DNA of 64,000 nucleotides, from positions 17,631-81,630 of the forward strand of contig JAUWMZ010000004.1 of NCBI GenBank assembly GCA_030612885.1, given 5' to 3'. Position 1 is the first letter of the stretch. Each line of letters opens with the position of its first letter. The stretch comes from Candidatus Nealsonbacteria bacterium (GTDB taxonomy: Bacteria > Patescibacteriota > Minisyncoccia > Minisyncoccales > JAGMDC01). Shown here one piece after another: positions 12,755 through 31,004 of this stretch. Under the pieces are notes generated by a model. That model saw only the letters and a list, made by a program, of their open reading frames with translations, was not told the origin of the DNA and ran no database searches. The position numbers and the translations under genes were made by a program.

Positions 12755-13696
12755 ATGACAAGTTTAGCTAAAATAAAAGTAATAGGGGTTGGCGGGTCTG
12801 GTTCTAATGCTGTTTCCAGAATGATGAAATGTAAAATTCAAGGCATTGATTTAATTGCCATTAATGCTGATGCCCAAGATTTAAAGCATACTTTTGCCCA
12901 TCAGAAAATTCGTATTGGCAAACAAGTAACTAAGGGTTTAGGTACGGGTATGAATCCAGAAGTGGGAAGGAAAGCAGCTGAAGAAAACAAAGAAGAGATT
13001 GAAAAGGTTTTAAAAGGTTCAGATATGGTTTTTATCACCTGCGGGCTTGGCGGCGGCTGCGGATCCGGCGCTTCTTCAGTAGTGGCTGAGATTGCTAAAA
13101 AGCAAGGGGCTTTGACTATTGCCGTGGTTACCAAGCCATTTTTTTTTGAGGGCAATCAGCGTCAGGCCATAGCTGAAAAAGCATTGAAAAATTTAAGAGA
13201 GAAAGTAGATACTCTGCTTATTATTCCCAATGACAAAGTTCTTTCTTTGATTGATAAAGAAACAACCTTACTCTCTGCTTTTTGGGCCTGCGATGAAGTC
13301 CTTAGAGAAGCGGTTCAGGGAATTTCCGATTTGATTGTTTTTCCCGGTATTATCAATGTTGATTTTGCTGATTTAAAAGCTATTATGAAAAACTCTGGTC
13401 CTGCTTTGTTCGGCATTGGTTATGGAAAAGGAGAAAACAGAATAGAAGAAGCAGTGAACCAGGCTATTAATTCTCCTTTGCTTGATTTCTCAATTCAAGG
13501 AGCGAAAGGCCTTTTATTTAATGTCAGCGGAGGAAGAGATATTAGCTTAGAAGAGGTCAGAAATATTGCCAATATTATTACCAAACATACTAGCCCCAGA
13601 GCAAAAGTAATTTTTGGCGCTGTTCAGGATAAAAATTTATCCAAAGGAGAAATAAAAATTACTGTTATTGCTACTGGGTTTAATAATAATGATTAA
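12755..13696 (+). CDS. ftsZ: cell division GTPase FtsZ (core only, no C-terminal linker/peptide)
   Basis: GVGGSGSNAV, tubulin signature GLGGGCGSGASS, NVDFADL; ORF ends 7 aa after VIATGF. Confidence 0.92.
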   Translation: MTSLAKIKVIGVGGSGSNAVSRMMKCKIQGIDLIAINADAQDLKHTFAHQKIRIGKQVTKGLGTGMNPEVGRKAAEENKEEIEKVLKGSDMVFITCGLGGGCGSGASSVVAEIAKKQGALTIAVVTKPFFFEGNQRQAIAEKALKNLREKVDTLLIIPNDKVLSLIDKETTLLSAFWACDEVLREAVQGISDLIVFPGIINVDFADLKAIMKNSGPALFGIGYGKGENRIEEAVNQAINSPLLDFSIQGAKGLLFNVSGGRDISLEEVRNIANIITKHTSPRAKVIFGAVQDKNLSKGEIKITVIATGFNNND

Positions 13697-14003
13697 TTTA
13701 AATGACCAAAATTTTCAAGAAGAAGTGCTTAATAACGACAAGCCGTTTTTAGTTGATTTTTGGACAGATTGGTGTGTTCCCTGCAAAGTTATTGCTCCTT
13801 TTGTAGAGAAAATTGCTGAAGATTATAAAGATAAGATAAAAGTCGGCAGGCTTAATGTAGATGAAGCCAAACAAACGGCTATTGCTTACGGAATTGAAGC
13901 TATTCCTACCTTAATTATTTTTAAACAAGGTCAGATAGTAGATAGAATAATTGGGGTAGTGCCTGAGCAGGTTTTAATCCAAAAAATAGAACAACATATT
14001 TAA
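13689..14003 (+). CDS. trxA: thioredoxin
   Basis: Start moved to ATG 13689 (MINLNDQNF...); WTDWCVPCK active site; AIPTLIIFKQG. Confidence 0.9.
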   Translation: MINLNDQNFQEEVLNNDKPFLVDFWTDWCVPCKVIAPFVEKIAEDYKDKIKVGRLNVDEAKQTAIAYGIEAIPTLIIFKQGQIVDRIIGVVPEQVLIQKIEQHI

Positions 14004-14074
14004 AATTTTTAAAATTTTTTTGTCTGTAAAGATATCATATATACTGCAGCCGCGGCATATGTGATACAATTTTT

Positions 14075-14344
14075 ATGAACGATAAAGCAGTAGAGAATTT
14101 AATAAAGGATTACAAAAAATACGCTGAAGAAAACGGATTTAAACTAAACTCTGATAAAAAGATAGTAGAGGTTTTAATCAAAAAATTATTAGAAAACGAG
14201 AAAAAGTACGGTGAAAGATATTGTCCTTGCAGATTAATCACTGGTGATTGTGAAAAAGATAAAAAAAAGATTTGCCCTTGTGTTTTTATGGATTCTGAAA
14301 TAAGAAAACAAGGTCATTATTATTGTGATTTGTTTGTAAAATGA
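14075..14344 (+). CDS. ferredoxin-thioredoxin reductase catalytic-subunit-like protein (variant third Cys motif)
   Basis: [10 protein letters not shown]...ICPCVFM...YYCDLF; the CPC/CPC pattern of FTR beta chain, with CHC replaced by YYC. Confidence 0.7.
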   Translation: MNDKAVENLIKDYKKYAEENGFKLNSDKKIVEVLIKKLLENEKKYGERYCPCRLITGDCEKDKKKICPCVFMDSEIRKQGHYYCDLFVK

Positions 14345-22883: not shown

Positions 22884-23285
22884 ATGGCAAAAATTCTTAT
22901 AACTTCAAATGGTTCTGATTTAAATTCTTCGGTTTCACCGGTTTTTGGGAGATGTTCTTATTTTTTGATAATTGATGAAAAAGGAAAGCTAGAAAAAGCC
23001 ATACCAAATACTGGCGTTCAGGCAATAAGAGGCGCAGGCATTGCTGCTGCTCAGACAGTAGTAAGCCAAGGAGCAACAGTAGTTATTACCGGGAATGTCG
23101 GACCTAATGCTTTTGCGGTTTTACAACAATCAGGAGTCAAACTCTATAATGGGGTAGGAATGACTGTCAAAGAAGCATTGGATAAATTTAAAGATAATGA
23201 GTTAACAGAGATTATTACATCAGCTGGCCGTTTTGGCGGTAGAGGAATGGGCGGCGGTATGGGCGGCGGAAGAAGACAGGTTTAA
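22884..23285 (+). CDS. NifX/NifB-C-terminal-like (dinitrogenase FeMo-cofactor-binding family) protein with Gly-rich tail
   Basis: ...VSPVFGRCSYFLIID..., GATVVITGNVGPNAFAVLQQSGVKLY typical of the family; tail GRFGGRGMGGGMGGGRRQV. Confidence 0.7.
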   Translation: MAKILITSNGSDLNSSVSPVFGRCSYFLIIDEKGKLEKAIPNTGVQAIRGAGIAAAQTVVSQGATVVITGNVGPNAFAVLQQSGVKLYNGVGMTVKEALDKFKDNELTEIITSAGRFGGRGMGGGMGGGRRQV

Positions 23286-23308
23286 AATAATTTTAATTTT
23301 AAACTCCT

Positions 23309-24124
23309 ATGAAAAAAATTGCCATCACTGGAGGTAAAGGCGGCACAGGTAAATCAACTGTTGCCGTTTTGTTGACTAATAAATTTTCAAAAAAAGGGAA
23401 AAAAGTAATTCTTTGCGATTGTGATGTGGAGTGTCCTAATGACTATTTGCTAATTGGTCAGAAATTAAAAAAACCAGTTAAAAAAATATTTGCTGAATTT
23501 CCCGAGTTAAATAAAAAGAAATGTCAGAAATGCGGACTTTGTGCCAAGACCTGCCAAAGTAATGCTATTTTTTTAGCACCAGGAAAATATCCGGTATTTA
23601 TTAAAGATTTATGTTCTGCCTGCGGCGCTTGTTGGGCTGTTTGTCCTTATAAAGCCATTAAAGCCAAGAAAGAAGAAGTTGGAAAAATATATTTGCATAA
23701 AATTAAAAGTAGCCTTTACTTAATTACCGGTGTTGCCAAAGCAGGGTTGGAGGAAACAGGGCCGGTTGTTACCCAGCTTAAAGAATTTGCTTTAAATTTC
23801 GCCAAGACAATAAAAGCAGATTATGTTTTATTTGATACTGCGGCTGGTATCCATTGTCCGGTCATCAGCGCTTTATTTGGTTGTGATTTCGCTTATGCTG
23901 TTACAGAACCAACGCCAATGGGCGCTTATGATTTAAATTTAATTTTGGACTTGTGTAAGAAACTTAAAATACCAACTAAAGTAATTATAAATCAAGCAGA
24001 TTTAGGAGATAAAAAGGAAATTAAAAAAATTGCCAGAAAATTTGAAACAAAAATAGTAAAAGAAATTCCTTATTCAAAAAAAATAGTTGATGCCTATTCT
24101 CAGGGCAGATTAAATAAATTATGA
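23309..24124 (+). CDS. MinD/Mrp-superfamily P-loop ATPase with inserted 2x[4Fe-4S] ferredoxin domain
   Basis: GGKGGTGKST Walker A, CDCDVECPN, CQKCGLCAKTC and CSACGACWAVCP cluster motifs. Confidence 0.8.
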   Translation: MKKIAITGGKGGTGKSTVAVLLTNKFSKKGKKVILCDCDVECPNDYLLIGQKLKKPVKKIFAEFPELNKKKCQKCGLCAKTCQSNAIFLAPGKYPVFIKDLCSACGACWAVCPYKAIKAKKEEVGKIYLHKIKSSLYLITGVAKAGLEETGPVVTQLKEFALNFAKTIKADYVLFDTAAGIHCPVISALFGCDFAYAVTEPTPMGAYDLNLILDLCKKLKIPTKVIINQADLGDKKEIKKIARKFETKIVKEIPYSKKIVDAYSQGRLNKL

Positions 24125-24987
24125 AATTTCAATTAGTTGTTACTTCAGGAAAAGGCGGGGTAGGGAAATCAATGCTGTGTTCTGCTTTAGCTATGCTTTT
24201 TAGTAAAAGGAAAAAAGTAGTGGCTGTTGATTGTGATGTTGACGCGCCGAATTTAGCAATATGGCTTAATGAAACAAGGAATTGGCAGAAAATTAAGAAA
24301 ATTTCTACTTCAGCCAAAGCAAAGATTGATTATAAGAAATGTAATGGGTGTGGACTATGCGCAGAACACTGCCGATTTAATGCTATAAAGATGGAAAAAG
24401 GCAAGCCAGTAATAAATCCTTTTTTATGTGAGGGTTGCGCTGCTTGTGAAGTTTTATGTCCTCAAAAAGCCATTAGCTTAAAACCAGTGAAAAATGGTGA
24501 AATAAAAGTTAAAAGAACAAAGTACGGTTTTTTCTTGGTTTCCGGCCAGCTTCTTCCTGGTGAAACCGGTTCTGGAAAAGTAGTAACTGAGATTAAAAAA
24601 GAAGGAGAGAGATTTAAATATGATATAATGATTATAGATTCAGCTCCAGGCACTGGCTGTCCGGTAATTGCTTCTCTGCAAGGTGCTGCCTTTGTTGTTT
24701 TAATCACTGAACCAACTCCTTCCGGGTTTTCTGACCTAAATCGGGTCTTAGAGGTAGTAAATCATTTTAATATGCCTTATAATATAGTAATAAACAAATG
24801 GGATATTAATCCTGATTTAAGCAAGAGAATTGAAAAATGGGCTGGCCCAAGATTTCTGGGCAAGATTTCTTATGACAAAAATATATTTAAAGCTATTTCT
24901 AATTTAACTCCAATTTTAGAAACAAATCTAAAAGCGAAAAAAGAGATTGAAGAGATTTATGGAAAACTACTTAAAAAATTGAATTAG
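24121..24987 (+). CDS. MinD/Mrp-superfamily P-loop ATPase with inserted 2x[4Fe-4S] ferredoxin domain (paralog)
   Basis: SGKGGVGKSM, VDCDVDAPN, CNGCGLCAEHC and CEGCAACEVLCP; ATGA overlap with upstream paralog. Confidence 0.8.
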   Translation: MKFQLVVTSGKGGVGKSMLCSALAMLFSKRKKVVAVDCDVDAPNLAIWLNETRNWQKIKKISTSAKAKIDYKKCNGCGLCAEHCRFNAIKMEKGKPVINPFLCEGCAACEVLCPQKAISLKPVKNGEIKVKRTKYGFFLVSGQLLPGETGSGKVVTEIKKEGERFKYDIMIIDSAPGTGCPVIASLQGAAFVVLITEPTPSGFSDLNRVLEVVNHFNMPYNIVINKWDINPDLSKRIEKWAGPRFLGKISYDKNIFKAISNLTPILETNLKAKKEIEEIYGKLLKKLN

Positions 24988-25126: not shown

Positions 25127-25294
25127 ATGGCTGAAAAAATTACTGCTTATTGTGTAAAATGTAAAGCAAAAAGAGAAATGAATGATCCGAAAGAAGTTAC
25201 TATGAAAGGAAAAGGAGGAACTAAAAGAAGGGCTATGACTGGAACTTGTCCAAAATGTGGGACAAAGATGTTTAGAATAATGGGAAATAAGTAA
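25127..25294 (+). CDS. small zinc-ribbon protein (55 aa; below the ORF-track size cut-off)
   Basis: Manual translation MAEKITAYCVKCKAKREMNDPKEVTMKGKGGTKRRAMTGTCPKCGTKMFRIMGNK; CxxC...CxxC; the opposing 25147-25377 ORF is spurious. Confidence 0.65.
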   Translation: MAEKITAYCVKCKAKREMNDPKEVTMKGKGGTKRRAMTGTCPKCGTKMFRIMGNK

Positions 25295-25463: not shown

Positions 25464-26342
25464 ATGAAAAGGTCTAAAAGTTTTGTTTCAGTAATATTGG
25501 GGCTGTTATTTTTAGCAAATATTTTAGCTTATTCATTGGTCTATGATTTAAACAACGCCCGATTACTTGAGGTTACCTTTTTTGATATAGGCCAAGGCGA
25601 TAGTATTTTTATTGAAACACCAGAAGGGCATCAAATTTTAATTGATGGAGGCCCGTCCTCAGCTGTTCTGGAAAAGTTAGCAGAAGAAATGCCTTTTTGG
25701 GACAGAACTATTGATTTAATAATTCTTACTCATCCAGAACATGACCACATAGCCGGCTTGCTCGAGGTTCTGCAGAGATATAAAGTAGAGCAGATTCTAT
25801 GGACCGGCATTAAACGGAATACAGCCGAATATAGAAAGTGGCAGGAGTTAATTAAGAAAGAAGAGGCAGAGGGAGCAAAAATATTTATAGCCCAGTCCGA
25901 TCAAAGAATATTAACGAGAAATGTTCTCGTTAATATTTTATATCCATTTGATAGTTTGGAGGGCCAGGAAGTTAAAAACACCAATAACAGCTCTATCATT
26001 ACTCGTTTAGTTTTTGGAAAAAAATCTTTTATATTTACTGGCGATGCTTACAAATCAATAGAAAGAGAATTAATAGAAAAAGACATTACTTTAAATTCAG
26101 ATGTTTTAAAAGTTGGGCATCATGGAAGCAAGACCTCGTCTTCTGAAGAATTTATACAAGCAGTGAGTCCGGAAATTGCTGTTATCCAATGCGGGAAAGA
26201 TAATCCCTACGGCCATCCTTATCCAGAGACATTGGCAACCCTTGAAAAATTTGGTATAAAGATTTTAAGAACAGATCAAAATGGAGATATTAAAATTGTT
26301 TCTGATGGAAAAAAATATGACATTTCCGATTTTCAAAACTAA
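25464..26342 (+). CDS. ComEC/Rec2-related metallo-beta-lactamase-fold protein
   Basis: N-terminal TM helix; FFDIGQGDSIFIE, THPEHDHIAGL, VGHHGSKTSS. Confidence 0.8.
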   Translation: MKRSKSFVSVILGLLFLANILAYSLVYDLNNARLLEVTFFDIGQGDSIFIETPEGHQILIDGGPSSAVLEKLAEEMPFWDRTIDLIILTHPEHDHIAGLLEVLQRYKVEQILWTGIKRNTAEYRKWQELIKKEEAEGAKIFIAQSDQRILTRNVLVNILYPFDSLEGQEVKNTNNSSIITRLVFGKKSFIFTGDAYKSIERELIEKDITLNSDVLKVGHHGSKTSSSEEFIQAVSPEIAVIQCGKDNPYGHPYPETLATLEKFGIKILRTDQNGDIKIVSDGKKYDISDFQN

Positions 26343-27384
26343 AAAAAGGGGAGTGAATAAAAAGTTTGACCTAACAAATCCAGGACAGCGAATGGAGTAT
26401 TTTCAATTGAAAGCCGGCAAAGAAATAGAAAAAATCAGGCAATACTTAAAAAACAAAACTTTTATTGCTTATTTTTTGGGAAAGAAAAATTCTGGCAAGG
26501 GAACTTATGCTAAAATGTTTGCTGAAGTGGTATGGCCGGAAAAGATATTTCATTTTTCCATAGGAGATATGATAAGAAGAATAGACGGGGAGTTAAAAGA
26601 TGAAGAGAAAAAAAAGCAATTGATTGGTTTTCTGGAAAAAAACTATCGCGGTTGGCTTTCAATTGATAAAATAATTTCTATATTAAAATCAAGAAATACA
26701 AAAGAATTACTGCCAACAGAACTGATTTTAACCTTGATCAAAAGAGAGATAGCTAAGCAAAAAGGAAAAGCTATCTTTATTGACGGCTTTCCTAGAGAAT
26801 TGGACCAAATAGCTTTTTCTTTATTTTTTCGGGATTTAGTTGATTACAGGCAGGACCCGGATATTTTTGTTTTAATTGATGTGCCGGAAAAAGTCATTGA
26901 TGAGAGAATAAAATGGAGAAGGGTTTGTCCGATTTGCCAAACATCAAGAAATTTAAAACTACTGCCTACTTCAAAAATCGGTTACAACAAGGATAAAAAA
27001 GAATTTTTTCTCGTTTGTGATAATCCAAAATGTAAAGGGGCTAAAATGCTTCAGAAAGAGGGAGACGCATTAGGCATAGGACCGATAAAGGAACGTTTAA
27101 ATTTAGATGAGACATTGATTAAAAAGGCATTTTCTTTATATGGCGTTCCTAAAATTTTATTAAGAAATTCCGTTCCAGTGAACAAAGCCAAAGAATTTAT
27201 TGATGACTATGAGGCTACTCCGGAATATAGTTATCAATGGAATGAGAAAAAGAAAAAAGTAAAAATAATTGAAAAGCCATGGGTTGCTCAAGATGAAAAC
27301 AATGTTTCTTCTTACAGCTTGATGCCTCCGCCAGTAGTTTTGTCTTTTATCTCTCAAATAGTTGACGCTTTAAATCTTCGCTGA
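26317..27384 (+). CDS. atypical long adenylate-kinase-family (NMP kinase) paralog
   Basis: P-loop GKKNSGKGTYAKMF, IDGFPRELDQ, Zn-lid-like RRVCPICQ...CDNPKCKG; start placed at ATG 26317. Confidence 0.6.
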   Translation: MTFPIFKTKKRGVNKKFDLTNPGQRMEYFQLKAGKEIEKIRQYLKNKTFIAYFLGKKNSGKGTYAKMFAEVVWPEKIFHFSIGDMIRRIDGELKDEEKKKQLIGFLEKNYRGWLSIDKIISILKSRNTKELLPTELILTLIKREIAKQKGKAIFIDGFPRELDQIAFSLFFRDLVDYRQDPDIFVLIDVPEKVIDERIKWRRVCPICQTSRNLKLLPTSKIGYNKDKKEFFLVCDNPKCKGAKMLQKEGDALGIGPIKERLNLDETLIKKAFSLYGVPKILLRNSVPVNKAKEFIDDYEATPEYSYQWNEKKKKVKIIEKPWVAQDENNVSSYSLMPPPVVLSFISQIVDALNLR

Positions 27385-27392
27385 CGCAGGGG

Positions 27393-27420
27393 TTGACAGA
27401 GTATTTAGAAGATATATAAT
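27393..27420 (+). promoter_or_regulatory. strong sigma70-like promoter (TTGACA-16-TATAAT) with no ORF behind it
   Basis: TTGACA 27393-27398, TATAAT 27415-27420, immediately after the stop codon of the previous gene. Confidence 0.55.
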
Positions 27421-27426
27421 AAAAGT

Positions 27427-27656
27427 GGAAGGGGGATAGAAATTTGGCGGTGCTTCATTAGAAGTTATGTAAGATAATTTTTAACGGAGCCCTGCTAATT
27501 TCTTAAGATTCTGGAACAAAAGTTTTTTCTGGGAGCTATATTTGTATAACCCGTGGGTCATACAAGAAGCACCCACTTGGATAGTTTTTCAGAAATTCTT
27601 TAGAAACGGCAGGGTCTTGAATTTGTTCGCTTTATTATTTAGGCGGATTTTTTTTA
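27427..27656 (+). ncRNA. candidate structured RNA (independent sRNA or long regulatory leader), class unknown
   Basis: No ORF. Long-range pairs ggtgcttc(27449-56)/gaagcacc(27566-73) and ccctgc(27490-95)/gcaggg(27609-14); competing hairpin gtgggt/acccac (27553-58/27571-76); ends in a T8 run. Confidence 0.35.
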
Positions 27657-27708: not shown

Positions 27709-27739
27709 TTGATATATCGAATCTTTGATTCGCTATAAT
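27709..27739 (+). promoter_or_regulatory. putative promoter of the ABC/GTPase/FTR operon (TTGATA-19-TATAAT)
   Basis: cttgatatatcgaa...tataatt, 11 nt before ATG 27751; same architecture as 8124-8154. Confidence 0.4.
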
Positions 27740-27750
27740 TAATAAAGATT

Positions 27751-28554
27751 ATGGATGAAGAAATTAAAAAAATTACAATTTTGCCTGGAATAAATAAATT
27801 CGGTAAAAAAGAAAATTTTGAAAAGATTGAAATAAAAAAAGGGCAGGTAATAGCTATTGTTGGCAATACTGGAGCAGGTAAAACACAGCTTCTCTATGAT
27901 ATTGAAAGATTGGCCCAAAAAGATACCAGAAGCAGACGAAAGTTTTTAGTCAATGATAAAATCCCTGATAAAGAAATGAGATTTAATCCGGAGAGAAAGC
28001 TGATCGCTTCGTTGGCTCAAAGCATGAATTTTTTAATGGATATATCTGTCAGGGATTTTCTAAAGCTGCATTTAGAATCTCGCGGAAAAAAAGCAAGACA
28101 AGGGTTGCTTAAAGAAGTAATAAAAGAAGCTAATGAAATTACCGGTGAGGCGATTTCTCCTGAAATGAATTTGCTAAATTTATCTGGAGGACAGAGCAGA
28201 GCATTAATGGTTTCTGATGTGGCAAATATCAGCGTTTCTCCTATTATTTTAATCGATGAAATAGAAAATGCCGGCATCAGAAAAGAAAAGGCGATTGAGA
28301 TTTTAGTAGAAGAGGGCAAAATTGTTTTAATTGTAACTCACGATCCCTCTCTAGCCCTAAACGCTGATAAAAGAATTATTATCAAGAATGGTGGTATTGT
28401 TAAAATTTTGGACACTACTTTAAAAGAAAAGGGTATTGCTTATTATCTTAATTGGATAGAAAATTACAATTTGGAAATTAGAGAAAAAATAAGGCAGGGA
28501 AGAGAAATTAAAAATGTAGAAATATACTGTGAACCGATTAAATTAAAGAAATAA
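27751..28554 (+). CDS. orphan ABC-type ATPase (no permease partner in the operon)
   Basis: Walker A GNTGAGKT, signature LSGGQSRAL, Walker B ILIDEIENAG, H-loop VTHD. Confidence 0.8.
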   Translation: MDEEIKKITILPGINKFGKKENFEKIEIKKGQVIAIVGNTGAGKTQLLYDIERLAQKDTRSRRKFLVNDKIPDKEMRFNPERKLIASLAQSMNFLMDISVRDFLKLHLESRGKKARQGLLKEVIKEANEITGEAISPEMNLLNLSGGQSRALMVSDVANISVSPIILIDEIENAGIRKEKAIEILVEEGKIVLIVTHDPSLALNADKRIIIKNGGIVKILDTTLKEKGIAYYLNWIENYNLEIREKIRQGREIKNVEIYCEPIKLKK

Positions 28555-28559
28555 AACTC

Positions 28560-29372
28560 ATGAAATTTGTAATTTTTGCCGGAACTCCCGGCTCAGGCAA
28601 GACCAGCATCATTAAATATATAGTTCAAGAATTAAAGGAGAATTTTAAATTATTCTTTGCTAAATTTGACTGTCTGCAAACATCAGATGACGAACGTATT
28701 AAGCAAGAATATAAAATTCCAACTGTTAAAAAATTGGCTGGAGAGCTTTGCCCCGACCATTACACGGCCTTAGAGATCCCTAAAATCGTCAAAGAAAACC
28801 AAGATAAAGATGTTATTATTTTAGAAACTGCCGGCTTATGTCTCCGTTGTTCCCCTTATATTAAGGAGGGTTTAGGAATTAATGTTTTGGATATTACTTC
28901 AGGAGACCCTTCTCGTTATGGTCCGATTTTAACACAAGCAGATGTTGTGGCTGTCAGCAAAGGCGATTTGATTTCTCAAGCAGAAAGAGAAATTTTTAGA
29001 GCGAAGATTTTAAAAGTTAACCCTAAAGCAAAAATAGTAGAAGTTAACGGACTTACTGGAGAAGGCGCTATTGATGTTGCAGAATTCATAAAGTTGTCTT
29101 CTCATATTGAAAATAAAAAACTTCGCCTCAAACATTCTATGCCTTCGGCAGTTTGCGGTTACTGCTATGGAAATAAAATAATTGATGAAAAAGAAGTGCA
29201 TCAAAGGTATTTGGCGGGAAAAGAATTGAAAAAACTAATTCCTAACTTAAATTGCGGAAAATGCGGGTTTAAATCTTGTAACGAGTTTATCAGAGCGGTT
29301 TTAGATAAGAAAGTAAAAAAAGAACAATGTCCATTTATTAAACAAAAGGTTGTAACTATTAAGAAACTATGA
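28560..29372 (+). CDS. G3E-family (HypB/UreG/CooC-like) P-loop GTPase fused to a C-terminal RnfB-type Fe-S domain
   Basis: [20 protein letters not shown] (cf. HypB ENVGNLVCP), SKGD; C-terminal [12 protein letters not shown]...CPF cysteine cluster. Confidence 0.65.
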
Positions 29373-29881
29373 CAGAAGAAAAACAAGAATTTGAGAAACT
29401 ATTCAAAGAATATCAAGACTACGCCAAAAAGAATGGCATTTGTTTGAATCCGGATAGAAAAATAACAGAGAGTTTGATCAAGGGTTTGATAGAGCGAGAG
29501 AGGAAGTATGGCGAAAGATATTGTCCTTGCCGCCGAGTTACAGGGAATAGAAAAAAAGACAAAAAAATTATCTGTCCTTGTGTTTATTATAAAAAAGAAA
29601 TTGAAGAACAAGGATATTGCCATTGTTTTTTATTTGTAAGTCCTACACCAGAGGCATTAGCTCATAAGGCAGAGAAAGATAATTTCAAAAATATGAATAG
29701 ATTTGAAGTAAATAAATCAAAATGCGCTGGTTGCGGCGCTTGTATCAAAATTTGTCCTTTTGGGGCAATTAAAATTGGAGAGGACGGAAAAGCGATTATA
29801 GACAAAAACAAATGTCAGGGTTGCGGTAAATGTAAAGAAATTTGTCCTTTTAATGCTGTAGAAACAGAGAAAGATAAATAA
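29369..29881 (+). CDS. ferredoxin-thioredoxin-reductase catalytic-domain / 2x[4Fe-4S] ferredoxin fusion
   Basis: [10 protein letters not shown]-x14-CPCVYY-x10-CHCFLF (complete FTR beta motif) followed by [12 protein letters not shown] and [12 protein letters not shown]. Confidence 0.8.
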
Positions 29882-29924: not shown

Positions 29925-30002
29925 TGGTCGGGGCACTGGGATTTGAACCCAGAAATCACACGCACCCCATGCGTGTATGTTATCCAATTACACTATGCCC
30001 CG
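29925..30002 (-). tRNA. tRNA-Pro (anticodon GGG), CCA encoded
   Basis: Reverse complement CGGGGCATAGTGTAATTGGATAACATACACGCATGGGGTGCGTG...CTGGGTTCAAATCCCAGTGCCCCGACCA; anticodon loop ATGGGGT. Confidence 0.85.
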
Positions 30003-30013
30003 AGATAGTTTAA

Positions 30014-30235
30014 TCACTTTAATTTAGAAAGTGTCTTTATACACTTAGCGCAGGCCAAGATTCTTTTGCCGGCAAATTTGCGGAAAGCTTTTTTTTCTAC
30101 ATCAATAGGAACTTTGACCCATTGGAGATTGGGGTATTTTCTTTTTTTGGGAGTAGGATTATACTTGCCCCTAAGTTTATTCAACTTCCGAGCCATTAAT
30201 CCTGTTTTTTGACAAATCGTACATTGTTTAGCCAT
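30014..30235 (-). CDS. rpmB: 50S ribosomal protein L28
   Basis: 73-aa basic ORF MAKQCTICQKTG...NPTPKKRKYPNLQWVKV... L28-like N-terminal pattern with extra Cys pair. Confidence 0.75.
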   Translation of the reverse strand: MAKQCTICQKTGLMARKLNKLRGKYNPTPKKRKYPNLQWVKVPIDVEKKAFRKFAGKRILACAKCIKTLSKLK

Positions 30236-30362
30236 AGTAATTCTATCTTAATATCTTTTTATAGATTTGGCAAGAGTTATTTTATTTGCTACACTATAAC
30301 TACTACACTATAACTATATAATAATTTTTCACTTTTCACTTTTAATTTAAACGATAGCGAAT

Positions 30363-31004
30363 ATGGACCCTTTAACTTTAATTTTAATCATTATCATATT
30401 TCTTTTTTCTGTTGTTATCCATGAAGTGGCTCACGGAACAATGGCAAATATCTTAGGAGATCCAACTGCCAAATATGCTGGGCGGCTTACTTTAAATCCT
30501 TTGAAGCATTTGGATCTTTTTGGCTCTATTATCGTGCCCGGTATTCTTATTTTAACCAGTATGGCCGTAGGGGGAGGTATTATTTTCGGTTGGGCAAAGC
30601 CAGTTCCTATTAATCCCTATAATTTCCGAGACCAAAAATATGGTTCAGCTAAAACAGCCCTTGCCGGTCCGGCAGCTAATATTCTCCTGGCTTTAGTTTT
30701 CGGGCTGTTAATAAGATTTTTGCCTTTTGGAACAGGTTTATTCTCCCAAAATTTGATTTTTGTTTTTGGTTTTATTGTCTGGGTAAATTTACTTTTGGCA
30801 GTATTTAATCTTTTACCAATTCCACCCTTAGACGGTTCTCATATTCTTTTTGCTTTTTTACCCCAGAGTATGGAGAAGCTAAAAATCATTTTGGCCCAGT
30901 ATGGTTTATTTATTTTACTTTTTGTTATTTTCTTTTTACTTCATTGGATTATACCAGCAATTAACTATTTATTTTATTTAATCGTCGGCGTTCCATTTTT
31001 TTAA
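30363..31004 (+). CDS. site-2 protease-family (M50) membrane metalloprotease
   Basis: HEVAHG and NLLPIPPLDG motifs in a polytopic membrane protein. Confidence 0.85.
   Translation: MDPLTLILIIIIFLFSVVIHEVAHGTMANILGDPTAKYAGRLTLNPLKHLDLFGSIIVPGILILTSMAVGGGIIFGWAKPVPINPYNFRDQKYGSAKTALAGPAANILLALVFGLLIRFLPFGTGLFSQNLIFVFGFIVWVNLLLAVFNLLPIPPLDGSHILFAFLPQSMEKLKIILAQYGLFILLFVIFFLLHWIIPAINYLFYLIVGVPFF

Follow-up and report, generated by a model that had tools for sequence, protein, structure and literature searches.

The 64,000-nucleotide stretch of contig JAUWMZ010000004.1 from Candidatus Nealsonbacteria bacterium analyzed here (the window; GC content of about 33%) contains an operon of three co-directional genes encoding an ATP-binding cassette (ABC) ATPase, a G3E GTPase that ends in an iron-sulfur (Fe-S) domain, and a fusion of an FTR-B protein, the catalytic subunit of ferredoxin-thioredoxin reductase (FTR), with a ferredoxin. 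The open reading frame (ORF) of the ABC ATPase (27751–28554, +; 267 aa) is followed after a gap of 5 nt by that of the GTPase (28560–29372, +; 270 aa), which in turn overlaps by 4 nt with the ORF of the fusion protein (29369–29881, +; 170 aa). These coordinates agree with the layout given in an earlier reading of the window from its letters (the original prediction), which had proposed a novel three-gene system for the maturation of metal centers. The domain assignments made there are borne out for all three proteins by profile matches above the Pfam curated cut-offs, and the motifs quoted, including the CGKCGFKSC...C pattern of the GTPase tail, were all found in the sequence.

The N-terminal domain of the GTPase (28560–29114, +) is of the HypB/UreG-like G3E type and matches PF02492 with 44.8 bits (cut-off 20.7). 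It contains the Walker A motif GTPGSGKT (residues 8–15), a CPDH motif (64–67), the segment ETAGLCLRC (89–97) and SKGD as the G4 motif (133–136). The Walker A motif and the ETAG of residues 89–92 are invariant across the family, as are His67 and all ten cysteines of the protein, Cys64, Cys94 and Cys97 among them. The G4 motif reads [ST]KxD in the relatives, with Lys134 and Asp136 invariant and the Asn replaced. Cys94 and Cys97 form a CxxC after Walker B, and in the alignment Cys64, His67 and Cys97 fall on the CH and NLxCP motifs that mark the interface site of archaeal HypB (2wsm, 2hf8), the same two entries that were matched by sequence in the PDB. In the AlphaFold2 model the G domain has pLDDT values of about 85–95, and a Foldseek search placed UreG (4hi0_E, 5xkt_A) and HypB (2wsm_A, 2hf8) at the top, with target-normalised TM-scores of 0.64–0.74. 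Among the NCBIfam models HypB (TIGR00073) was the nearest, with 63.9 bits (cut-off 121.2), and the corresponding values for UreG (TIGR00101), TIGR02475 and ZigA were 24.4 against 204.2, 17.6 against 332 and 15.5 against 600, respectively. No CobW_C domain was matched in the protein by Pfam, and its motif is CLRC, not CxCC. A canonical HypB, UreG or COG0523 assignment is thus ruled out by the curated cut-offs, the motifs and the gene context.

The G domain is followed by a flexible linker (pLDDT < 50) that holds another invariant CxxC (Cys199-Gly-Tyr-Cys202; 29154–29165, +). This is part of a CxxCxG family signature also retained by most relatives lacking the Fe-S tail (11 of the 13 distant representatives examined, and A5). 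The C-terminus is formed by a PF04060 domain (29241–29336, +; 40.6 bits, cut-off 23, E = 2e-10), a putative [4Fe-4S] module whose four cysteines (Cys232, Cys235, Cys240 and Cys257) are all invariant and which resembles the N-terminal domains of RnfB, CdhE and MobB/FeS in NCBIfam and the N-terminus of the corrinoid Fe-S protein (CFeSP; 4djd).

The ABC ATPase matches PF00005 (ABC_tran) with 42.7 bits (cut-off 25) and shows the full set of motifs: Walker A GNTGAGKT (residues 38–45), Gln90, the signature LSGGQ (144–148), Walker B ILIDE (166–170) and His197. Gly38–Thr45, Gln90, Leu144–Gln148, Asp169–Glu170 and His197 are invariant across its relatives, and toward the C-terminus there is a long helix (224–248) and an invariant Cys260. 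The best relatives behave like the best 120 of the GTPase (75–100% identity, with CPR/archaeal-type labels, where CPR denotes the Candidate Phyla Radiation). The description of the gene as an orphan fits this complete motif set together with the absence of flanking permease or binding-protein genes in the window; a cognate permease gene was neither seen adjoining it in the window nor found consistently adjacent in about 110 related loci. In addition, the protein stays far under the cut-off of every NCBIfam transporter equivalog. The AlphaFold2 model (pLDDT 84.7) displays a generic fold of a nucleotide-binding domain (NBD), and SmsC (9h78), which ranked second in the fold search, was inseparable from transporter NBDs. 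MJ0035 reached 36.8 bits against the protein, no better than transporter NBDs, and the SufC model was absent among the 25 best NCBIfam matches listed. A SufC/SmsC identity was consequently rejected, the likeness in sequence and fold not being distinctive, and the protein is predicted to be a soluble, membrane-less ABC ATPase.

The third protein (29369–29881, +) consists of an FTR-B-like domain (residues 8–101; FeThRed_B, PF02943, 92.4 bits, cut-off 22) and a 2x[4Fe-4S] ferredoxin (residues 112–167; Fer4, 60.4 bits). The six cysteines and one histidine of FTR are arranged as CPC-x14-CPC-x12-CHC, which corrects the spacing CPC-x14-CPC-x10-CHC initially proposed. The nearest structures are those of the Methanosarcina acetivorans FDR (4tpu, E = 1.5e-19) and 7pwe, and the fusion is predicted to be a self-contained ferredoxin:disulfide reductase. 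The operon, to which this negative is limited, shows no candidate gene for the variable subunit (FTR-A). Only about 7 of 120 FTR relatives share this domain order, and many of the others are fusions of thioredoxin (Trx) with FTR-B, indicating that Trx is the usual substrate of FTR; it is likely to be the substrate of the window enzyme as well. The fusion is colinear with two separate genes of one of the closest related loci (L114), those of FTR-B and of the ferredoxin that trails it, and represents a rare, local joining of two neighboring genes. The only Trx gene of the window (13668–14003, +) lies 14 kb from the operon, in a second pair with a stand-alone FTR-B-like gene (14075–14344, +). In the latter the third motif is HYYC instead of CHC, with one predicted cluster-ligand Cys and the His missing, so that it may encode an atypical or degenerate FTR; the Trx may be a partner for the fusion protein of the operon.

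A total of 1969 relatives of the GTPase were detectable, the best 120 of which are 75–100% identical, all contain both the cobW and FeS domains, and bear source labels such as CPR3, Wolfebacteria, 'Babeliales' and an archaeon. For the comparison of gene order, 30 non-redundant Fe-S-tailed loci were drawn from species-representative genomes and assemblies, labeled as Saccharibacteria/Parcubacteria/Patescibacteria, CPR3, TM6 (GW2011_GWF2_28_16), Iainarchaeum and other archaea (a few metagenome-assembled genomes, MAGs, being doubtfully labeled). The ABC gene adjoins the GTPase gene in 30 of 30 (about 80% identity), an arrangement far beyond chance, and a 2x[4Fe-4S] ferredoxin, fused in the window, is encoded within 1.5 kb in 26. 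Within 8 kb, Trx is found in 17 of the loci, FTR-B in 16, NifX-like or MinD-Fer4 genes in 12, a metal transporter of the CDF, ZIP or ABC-3 type in 10 and a CsoR-family regulator in 9, and DUF134 occurs in 9. Where FTR-B is present it always lies in the operon, directly after the GTPase or the ferredoxin, from CPR through DPANN archaea. Measured against the window proteins, the ABC ATPase and the GTPase have median identities of 78% and 82%, respectively, as opposed to 61% for FTR-B and 64% for the ferredoxin. The invariant core is formed by the ABC ATPase and the GTPase, and a ferredoxin nearly always accompanies the Fe-S-tailed form. The original prediction was to be abandoned if the neighborhood proved unconserved in any other genome or if profile searches failed to support the domains. 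The ABC-GTPase neighborhood is kept in CPR, DPANN archaea and TM6, and the prediction therefore survives, with a core of two genes rather than three.

The closest relatives, L114 and L116, are 83% identical to the window in nucleotide sequence over the ABC and GTPase genes, as compared with 72–75% for the operon partners, and have the order CsoR-like regulator, Trx, ABC, GTPase-FeS, ferredoxin, FTR-B, ferredoxin. Compared with them, the window operon is a derived form that has lost the CsoR-like regulator, Trx and the first ferredoxin. Downstream of it (29925–31004) lie a tRNA-Pro (GGG), an L28-like gene of 73 aa and the gene of an M50 peptidase, and the same block is found in L114 (1037–2076) upstream of the operon and inverted. 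This implies an inversion relative to L114, with breakpoints falling where the CsoR-like regulator and Trx genes were lost. A different surrounding is seen in L024, where the order is DUF5320, NifX, NifX, ferredoxin, ABC, GTPase, a 66-aa ORF, ferredoxin, ZIP, MinD-Fer4, CDF, pyruvoyl arginine decarboxylase, ZnuC-like, ABC-3, DUF134 and YibE/F, that is, a small metal island. The pair of L001 (archaeon MAG GCA_043801855.1, 5204–6795) is 75–77% identical to that of the window, and those of the other DPANN loci L029 and L030 only 53–66%. The identity of L001, together with the level of about 80% seen across many CPR classes, suggests recent horizontal spread, cross-domain transfer included, or else mis-binning. 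Plasmids and phages were considered as the vector and discarded, as they gave HypB-level matches only, apart from a Fusobacterium chromosome mislabeled as a plasmid.

In a search of 1.84 billion cluster representatives the GTPase family was compact, comprising 26 representatives at E <= 1e-30, a number that rises to 150 when the limit is relaxed to E <= 1e-10. The whole Fe-S-tailed clade corresponds to a single representative, and most of the others are tail-less proteins of about 230 aa that keep CPDH, E[ST]AGLCxRC, [ST]KxD and, mostly, the C-terminal CxxCxG; CPDH, E[ST]AGLCxRC and CxxCxG persist down to representatives at 32–47% identity. Two proteins (P0365, 613 aa, and P0371, 509 aa) are GTPase-ABC fusions, the ABC half of which is 43–47% identical to the window ABC protein, and such Rosetta-stone fusions argue that the two proteins act together. 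The cultured Fusobacterium vincentii encodes a tail-less homologue of the GTPase (43% identity) in the order DUF1858-SBP_bac_6, GTPase, ABC ATPase, with ZnuA/ZnuC/ZnuB genes adjoining. A metagenome scan built on a 6-sequence alignment added 80 loci of this sister clade, with a GTPase 71–99% identical to that of Fusobacterium. In the resulting 81 loci the ABC gene is adjacent to the GTPase gene in 76, and the gene of the DUF1858-containing solute-binding protein (SBP) lies upstream in 68. An 80-aa Cys-rich zinc-ribbon protein follows the ABC gene in 27, a hybrid-cluster protein (HCP; NF003658, 871 bits, cut-off 367) is encoded downstream in 8–9, and a Crp/Fnr-type regulator occurs in 6–8. FTR-B was found in none of these loci and Trx in 4, and ferredoxin and PF04060 are absent from most of them. 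ZnuC-like genes occur in only about 7–8 of the 81; the Znu adjacency is largely specific to Fusobacterium.

In the SBP_bac_6 partner the N-terminal DUF1858, annotated as an HCP-associated redox-disulfide domain, occupies the usual place of the signal peptide, as in a cytoplasmic SBP; no solved structure matched this protein at E <= 1e-3. The 80-aa zinc ribbon (4722–4964 in L054, and 26 other loci) shows a sub-threshold likeness to the zinc ribbon of HypA (E = 1e-4), and a DUF5679 zinc ribbon of the window (25127–25294) gives a faint HypA match (E = 0.006). On one contig (L050, 4409–7463, -), an operon of the DUF1858-SBP type is accompanied by a second pair, in which the ABC gene comes first, followed by a tail-less GTPase, a protein of 219 aa and a PHO4-family permease. 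The 219-aa protein has a PF04060 Fe-S domain at its N-terminus, followed by about 170 aa without assigned domain, and this occurrence of PF04060 as a separate adjoining gene indicates that the Fe-S domain is a genuine recurring partner of the GTPase.

Further companions are related to Fe-S and metal chemistry. A trio of genes (22884–24987) located 2.8 kb upstream of the window operon encodes a NifX/Nitro_FeMo-Co protein (22884–23285, +) and two ATPases of the MinD type, each carrying a 2x[4Fe-4S] ferredoxin as an insertion (23309–24124 and 24121–24987, +), all assigned by Pfam. These are domain-level counterparts of Orp8, Orp3 and Orp4 of Desulfovibrio, and the ORP proteins are Fe-S and metal-sulfide proteins (PMC6345978). 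Families of this type are interleaved with the ABC-GTPase pair in L008 and L023–L025, and the trio is likely to be a functional companion of the operon and possibly a client or carrier for its chaperone. One lineage of high GC content has the ABC gene, the GTPase gene and, directly after them, that of a NifS-type cysteine desulfurase (TIGR03402, 5e-93, partial sequence). What had looked like GTPase-cysteine desulfurase fusions of the P0443 type was downgraded to adjacency, because the gene calls there are frameshifted. At the head of the fuller operons, a CsoR-like gene lies upstream of Trx in eleven loci (L003, L005–L007, L009, L012, L013, L016, L031, L114 and L116). These CsoR-family regulators (PF02583) have exactly two conserved cysteines (residues 30 and 59 in L003) and no conserved His, a pattern that we take to agree more closely with CstR-like sensors of thiols or persulfides than with Cu(I) sensors of the C-H-C type.

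A promoter-bearing structured region had been placed at the head of the operon. The promoter is indeed a full sigma-70 consensus (TTGACA-16-TATAAT, 12/12; 27393–27420, +), and it is followed by about 230 nt with a predicted fold of -69.1 kcal/mol minimum free energy (z = -4.13). This stretch, however, ends in its own intrinsic terminator (27625–27648, +) and a T-run, about 95 nt before the ATG of the operon, and no counterpart was seen beside the operon in 31 related loci or in the closest relatives L114–L116. Both features indicate a neighboring unit and not an operon leader, and a conserved leader was discarded on account of its absence from all relatives examined. A decayed remnant of the CsoR-like and Trx genes found no support in tblastn. 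No Rfam family matched at the gathering threshold, with only noise at E <= 10, and a known RNA family was likewise rejected. For the region 27393–27656 (+), an independent small RNA is the preferred candidate, ahead of an attenuator-type leader of the ABC operon confined to this lineage. Given the terminator, the operon requires a promoter downstream of it, and the sequence TTGATA (27709–27714), a 19-nt spacer and TATAAT (27734–27739, +) is probably the operon's own, although this is a weak call, read by eye with a spacer outside the limits of the promoter scan. Between its hexamers lies a 6-bp perfect inverted repeat (CGAATC-ttt-GATTCG, 27718–27732, +) that could be an operator, or a chance occurrence, as so short a repeat may be in AT-rich DNA. 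Farther upstream, a 367-aa adenylate-kinase-like ORF (26281–27384, +; ADK E = 1e-11) has a long N-terminal extension and overlaps the preceding metallo-beta-lactamase gene by 62 nt, and translation probably begins downstream of the annotated start.

The ABC ATPase and the G3E GTPase are tentatively read as a conserved chaperone of two nucleoside triphosphatases (NTPases) for a Cys-ligated metal center, most likely of the Fe-S type or its precursors, with a role in the assembly, repair or insertion of this center into a client. This is the best of the readings considered, and the maturation of metal centers advanced in the original prediction is retained in it. A center of the Fe-S or iron type is favored by the NifS, HCP with DUF1858 and ORP-type companions, the electron input and the thiol-type regulator. 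In this scenario the two proteins would form a physical complex in which the GTPase would dimerize on GTP like HypB and UreG, with Cys64, His67, Cys94 and Cys97 holding a metal or cluster at the interface, and the flexible CxxC of Cys199 and Cys202 would receive this metal or cluster or pass it onward. The ABC dimer would provide ATP-driven clamping or conformational work, as SufC and SmsC do on their scaffolds. In the CPR/DPANN form, low-potential electrons would flow from the 2x[4Fe-4S] ferredoxin to the fused PF04060 [4Fe-4S] domain and serve reductive steps, for example cluster coupling or the reduction of persulfide or metal. The FTR module, fused to its own ferredoxin, would reduce Trx and/or the CxxC disulfides or persulfides of the chaperone, so that the thiolate ligands stay competent. 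The NifX-like and MinD-Fer4 proteins of the ORP-like trio are candidate clients. The wider proposal, that the pair is the core of an unrecognized and widespread machine of anaerobes which builds or repairs Fe-S-type centers, hybrid clusters included, and represents a fifth G3E subfamily, is considered possible but rather doubtful.

Several points weigh against an Fe-S chaperone. The cargo of every G3E chaperone characterized so far is Ni, Zn, Co, Fe2+ or cobalamin, and not an Fe-S cluster (PMC9164220). The fold of the ABC ATPase is generic and not specifically SufC/SmsC-like, no gene for a SufB/SmsB- or IscU-type scaffold was seen in the loci, and the C-terminal half of the GTPase is modeled at low confidence. 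HCP, NifS and ORP associations each concern a minority of loci, and the Znu, ZIP and CDF neighbors together with the HypA-like zinc ribbon fit the delivery of a single ion equally well. Finally, the function is deduced from sequence, models and gene context.

Such single-ion delivery is the main rival, somewhat unlikely in our view: a client enzyme would receive Ni, Zn, Co or Fe2+ from the GTPase, acting in the manner of HypB, UreG and COG0523 proteins, for which the G3E family offers precedent (PMC9164220), with the ABC ATPase as an accessory and the redox proteins merely protecting thiolate ligands. HypB and UreG are the nearest proteins by sequence and fold and the HypB-type Cys/His/Cys site is conserved, but the curated HypB, UreG, CobW and ZigA cut-offs are missed by wide margins. 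Metal-related neighbors agree with it, namely the small HypA-like zinc-ribbon protein after the operon in 27 sister-clade loci (a match that is itself sub-threshold), the ZnuA/ZnuC/ZnuB genes adjoining the pair in Fusobacterium and the CDF, ZIP and ABC-3 genes in 10 of the 30 CPR-type loci. However, hydrogenase, urease, nitrile hydratase and B12-mutase are absent among the recurrent neighbor families of the roughly 110 loci, and the ferredoxin and PF04060 input and the adjacency of NifS and HCP are left unexplained. It is also unlikely that the operon is a loose stress regulon in which the FTR-ferredoxin fusion, with Trx encoded elsewhere, carries out general disulfide reduction (e.g. of ribonucleotide reductase or peroxiredoxins), co-transcribed with the ABC-GTPase chaperone and mechanistically independent of it. 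The partial occurrence of FTR-B (16/30) and Trx (17/30), with none and 4/81, respectively, in the sister clade, would fit such independence, as would the stand-alone FTR-B and Trx-FTRB fusions widespread in the same organisms, the second Trx/FTRB-like pair of the window (13668–14344) and the thiol-type CsoR-like regulator, which suggests a shared stress regulon. In Methanosarcina, FTR-like FDR enzymes are reported to serve general Trx and ribonucleotide reductase reduction (work cited in PMC6262447). Nevertheless, FTR-B, when present, always sits inside the operon from DPANN archaea to CPR, its fusion in the window shares a translational overlap of 4 nt with the GTPase gene, and ferredoxin, the electron donor of FTR, is a near-obligate partner of the Fe-S-tailed GTPase.

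Two other rivals are much less probable. In one, which we consider improbable, the GTPase dimer would bridge a [4Fe-4S] cluster on its CxxC pairs, for which the NifH/BchL-type SIMIBI ATPases provide the comparison, and GTP (and ATP via the ABC protein) would push ferredoxin electrons into a client metalloenzyme. The nearly obligate ferredoxin and PF04060 input, the use of PF04060 domains by RnfB and CFeSP to take in electrons, and the invariant CxxC directly after Walker B at the predicted dimer interface are consistent with such an injector. It is at odds with the tail-less sister clade, most loci of which are devoid of ferredoxin and PF04060, and with the absence of a conserved reductase client adjoining the pair, and such an action is not known for any G3E protein (PMC9164220). 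The other, more improbable still, is a cryptic importer, with the ABC ATPase energizing a metal or solute permease encoded elsewhere and the GTPase loading the imported metal. Points in its favor are the SBP_bac_6-like protein preceding the pair in 68 of the 81 sister-clade loci and the ABC-3 permeases near the pair in six CPR-type loci. However, DUF1858 stands where the former would normally have its signal peptide, and the latter are accompanied by their own ZnuC-like ATPase. The large majority of the roughly 110 loci lack an adjoining permease, and two lineages have the ABC domain and the soluble GTPase in one polypeptide.

If the two-NTPase chaperone for a Cys-ligated center is correct, a fifth, compact and strongly conserved G3E subfamily would extend nucleotide-driven metal-center delivery. 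Its defining features would be the constant pairing, and sometimes fusion, with a membrane-less ABC ATPase and, in CPR and DPANN, the coupling to ferredoxin, FTR and Trx. In CPR, DPANN and Dependentiae it would be wired to ferredoxin through the fused [4Fe-4S] domain, with a dedicated ferredoxin:disulfide reductase in support. An identity of about 80% across ultra-small symbionts of both domains would then reflect an important, horizontally shared function, and the module, kept at this level by minimal genomes, would offer a way to approach the biogenesis of metallocofactors in CPR and DPANN. As the sister form occurs in the tractable Fusobacterium, in some genomes beside HCP, the hypothesis is directly testable, and the module may bear on HCP maturation and nitrosative-stress physiology.

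The G3E GTPases serve as the model for metallochaperones, and four subfamilies are distinguished in reviews, UreG, HypB, MeaB and COG0523, none of which has an ABC-ATPase partner or an electron input of its own (PMC9164220). The GTPase fits none of the known subfamilies tested by curated cut-offs. The ABC-GTPase family is rated as a putative new G3E chaperone subfamily and system architecture with its own signature and an obligate ABC partner. That the system was undescribed had already been suggested, and the literature on a G3E GTPase with an ABC ATPase and FTR yielded no account of it; nor was the module described in that on FTR-like enzymes, CPR/DPANN, ORP, Fe-S biogenesis, HCP/HcpR, G3E/COG0523 and Fusobacterium, although a prior mention is not fully excludable. 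In public databases its proteins are named only generically. With HypB and UreG the GTPase shares the fold and the G1 and G3 motifs, and its CPDH corresponds to the CPH of UreG and the CH of HypB at the interface. It differs from both in the extra Cys (the CxxC after Walker B), the C-terminal CxxC, the fused PF04060 domain and the [ST]KxD form of G4. In addition, hyp or [NiFe]-hydrogenase genes are absent among the recurrent neighbors in the 30 and 81 loci, urease genes are absent from the loci, and the obligate ABC-ATPase partner is unlike any described G3E subfamily (PMC9164220). The SufBC2D and SmsCB systems also rely on a soluble ABC ATPase without membrane domain, with Cys-rich partners and in an Fe-S context; here, however, a SufB/SmsB-type scaffold was not seen in the loci and the partner is a GTPase. 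The ORP complex has its likeness in the NifX-like (Orp8-type) and the two MinD-ferredoxin (Orp3/Orp4-type) proteins of the window, but Orp5, MrpORP and sigma-54 control were not seen in the window, and the described ORP clusters are without G3E GTPase, ABC ATPase or FTR (PMC6345978).

The fusion of a SIMIBI P-loop NTPase to PF04060 has a precedent in MobB/FeS (PRK14494), although the NTPase there is MobB and not a G3E protein, and the window shows no molybdopterin context. In RnfB and CFeSP the same domain is the electron-entry module at the N-terminus, and only this Fe-S domain matches the window GTPase. A carrier-fused FTR-like enzyme is already known in the FDR of M. acetivorans, an FTR-like core with a rubredoxin (PMC6262447). 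Like this enzyme (4tpu), the window protein is a single-subunit, FTR-like enzyme with complete CPC/CPC/CHC motifs and a fused carrier; the carrier, however, is a C-terminal 2x[4Fe-4S] ferredoxin in place of rubredoxin, and the gene lies inside a chaperone operon.

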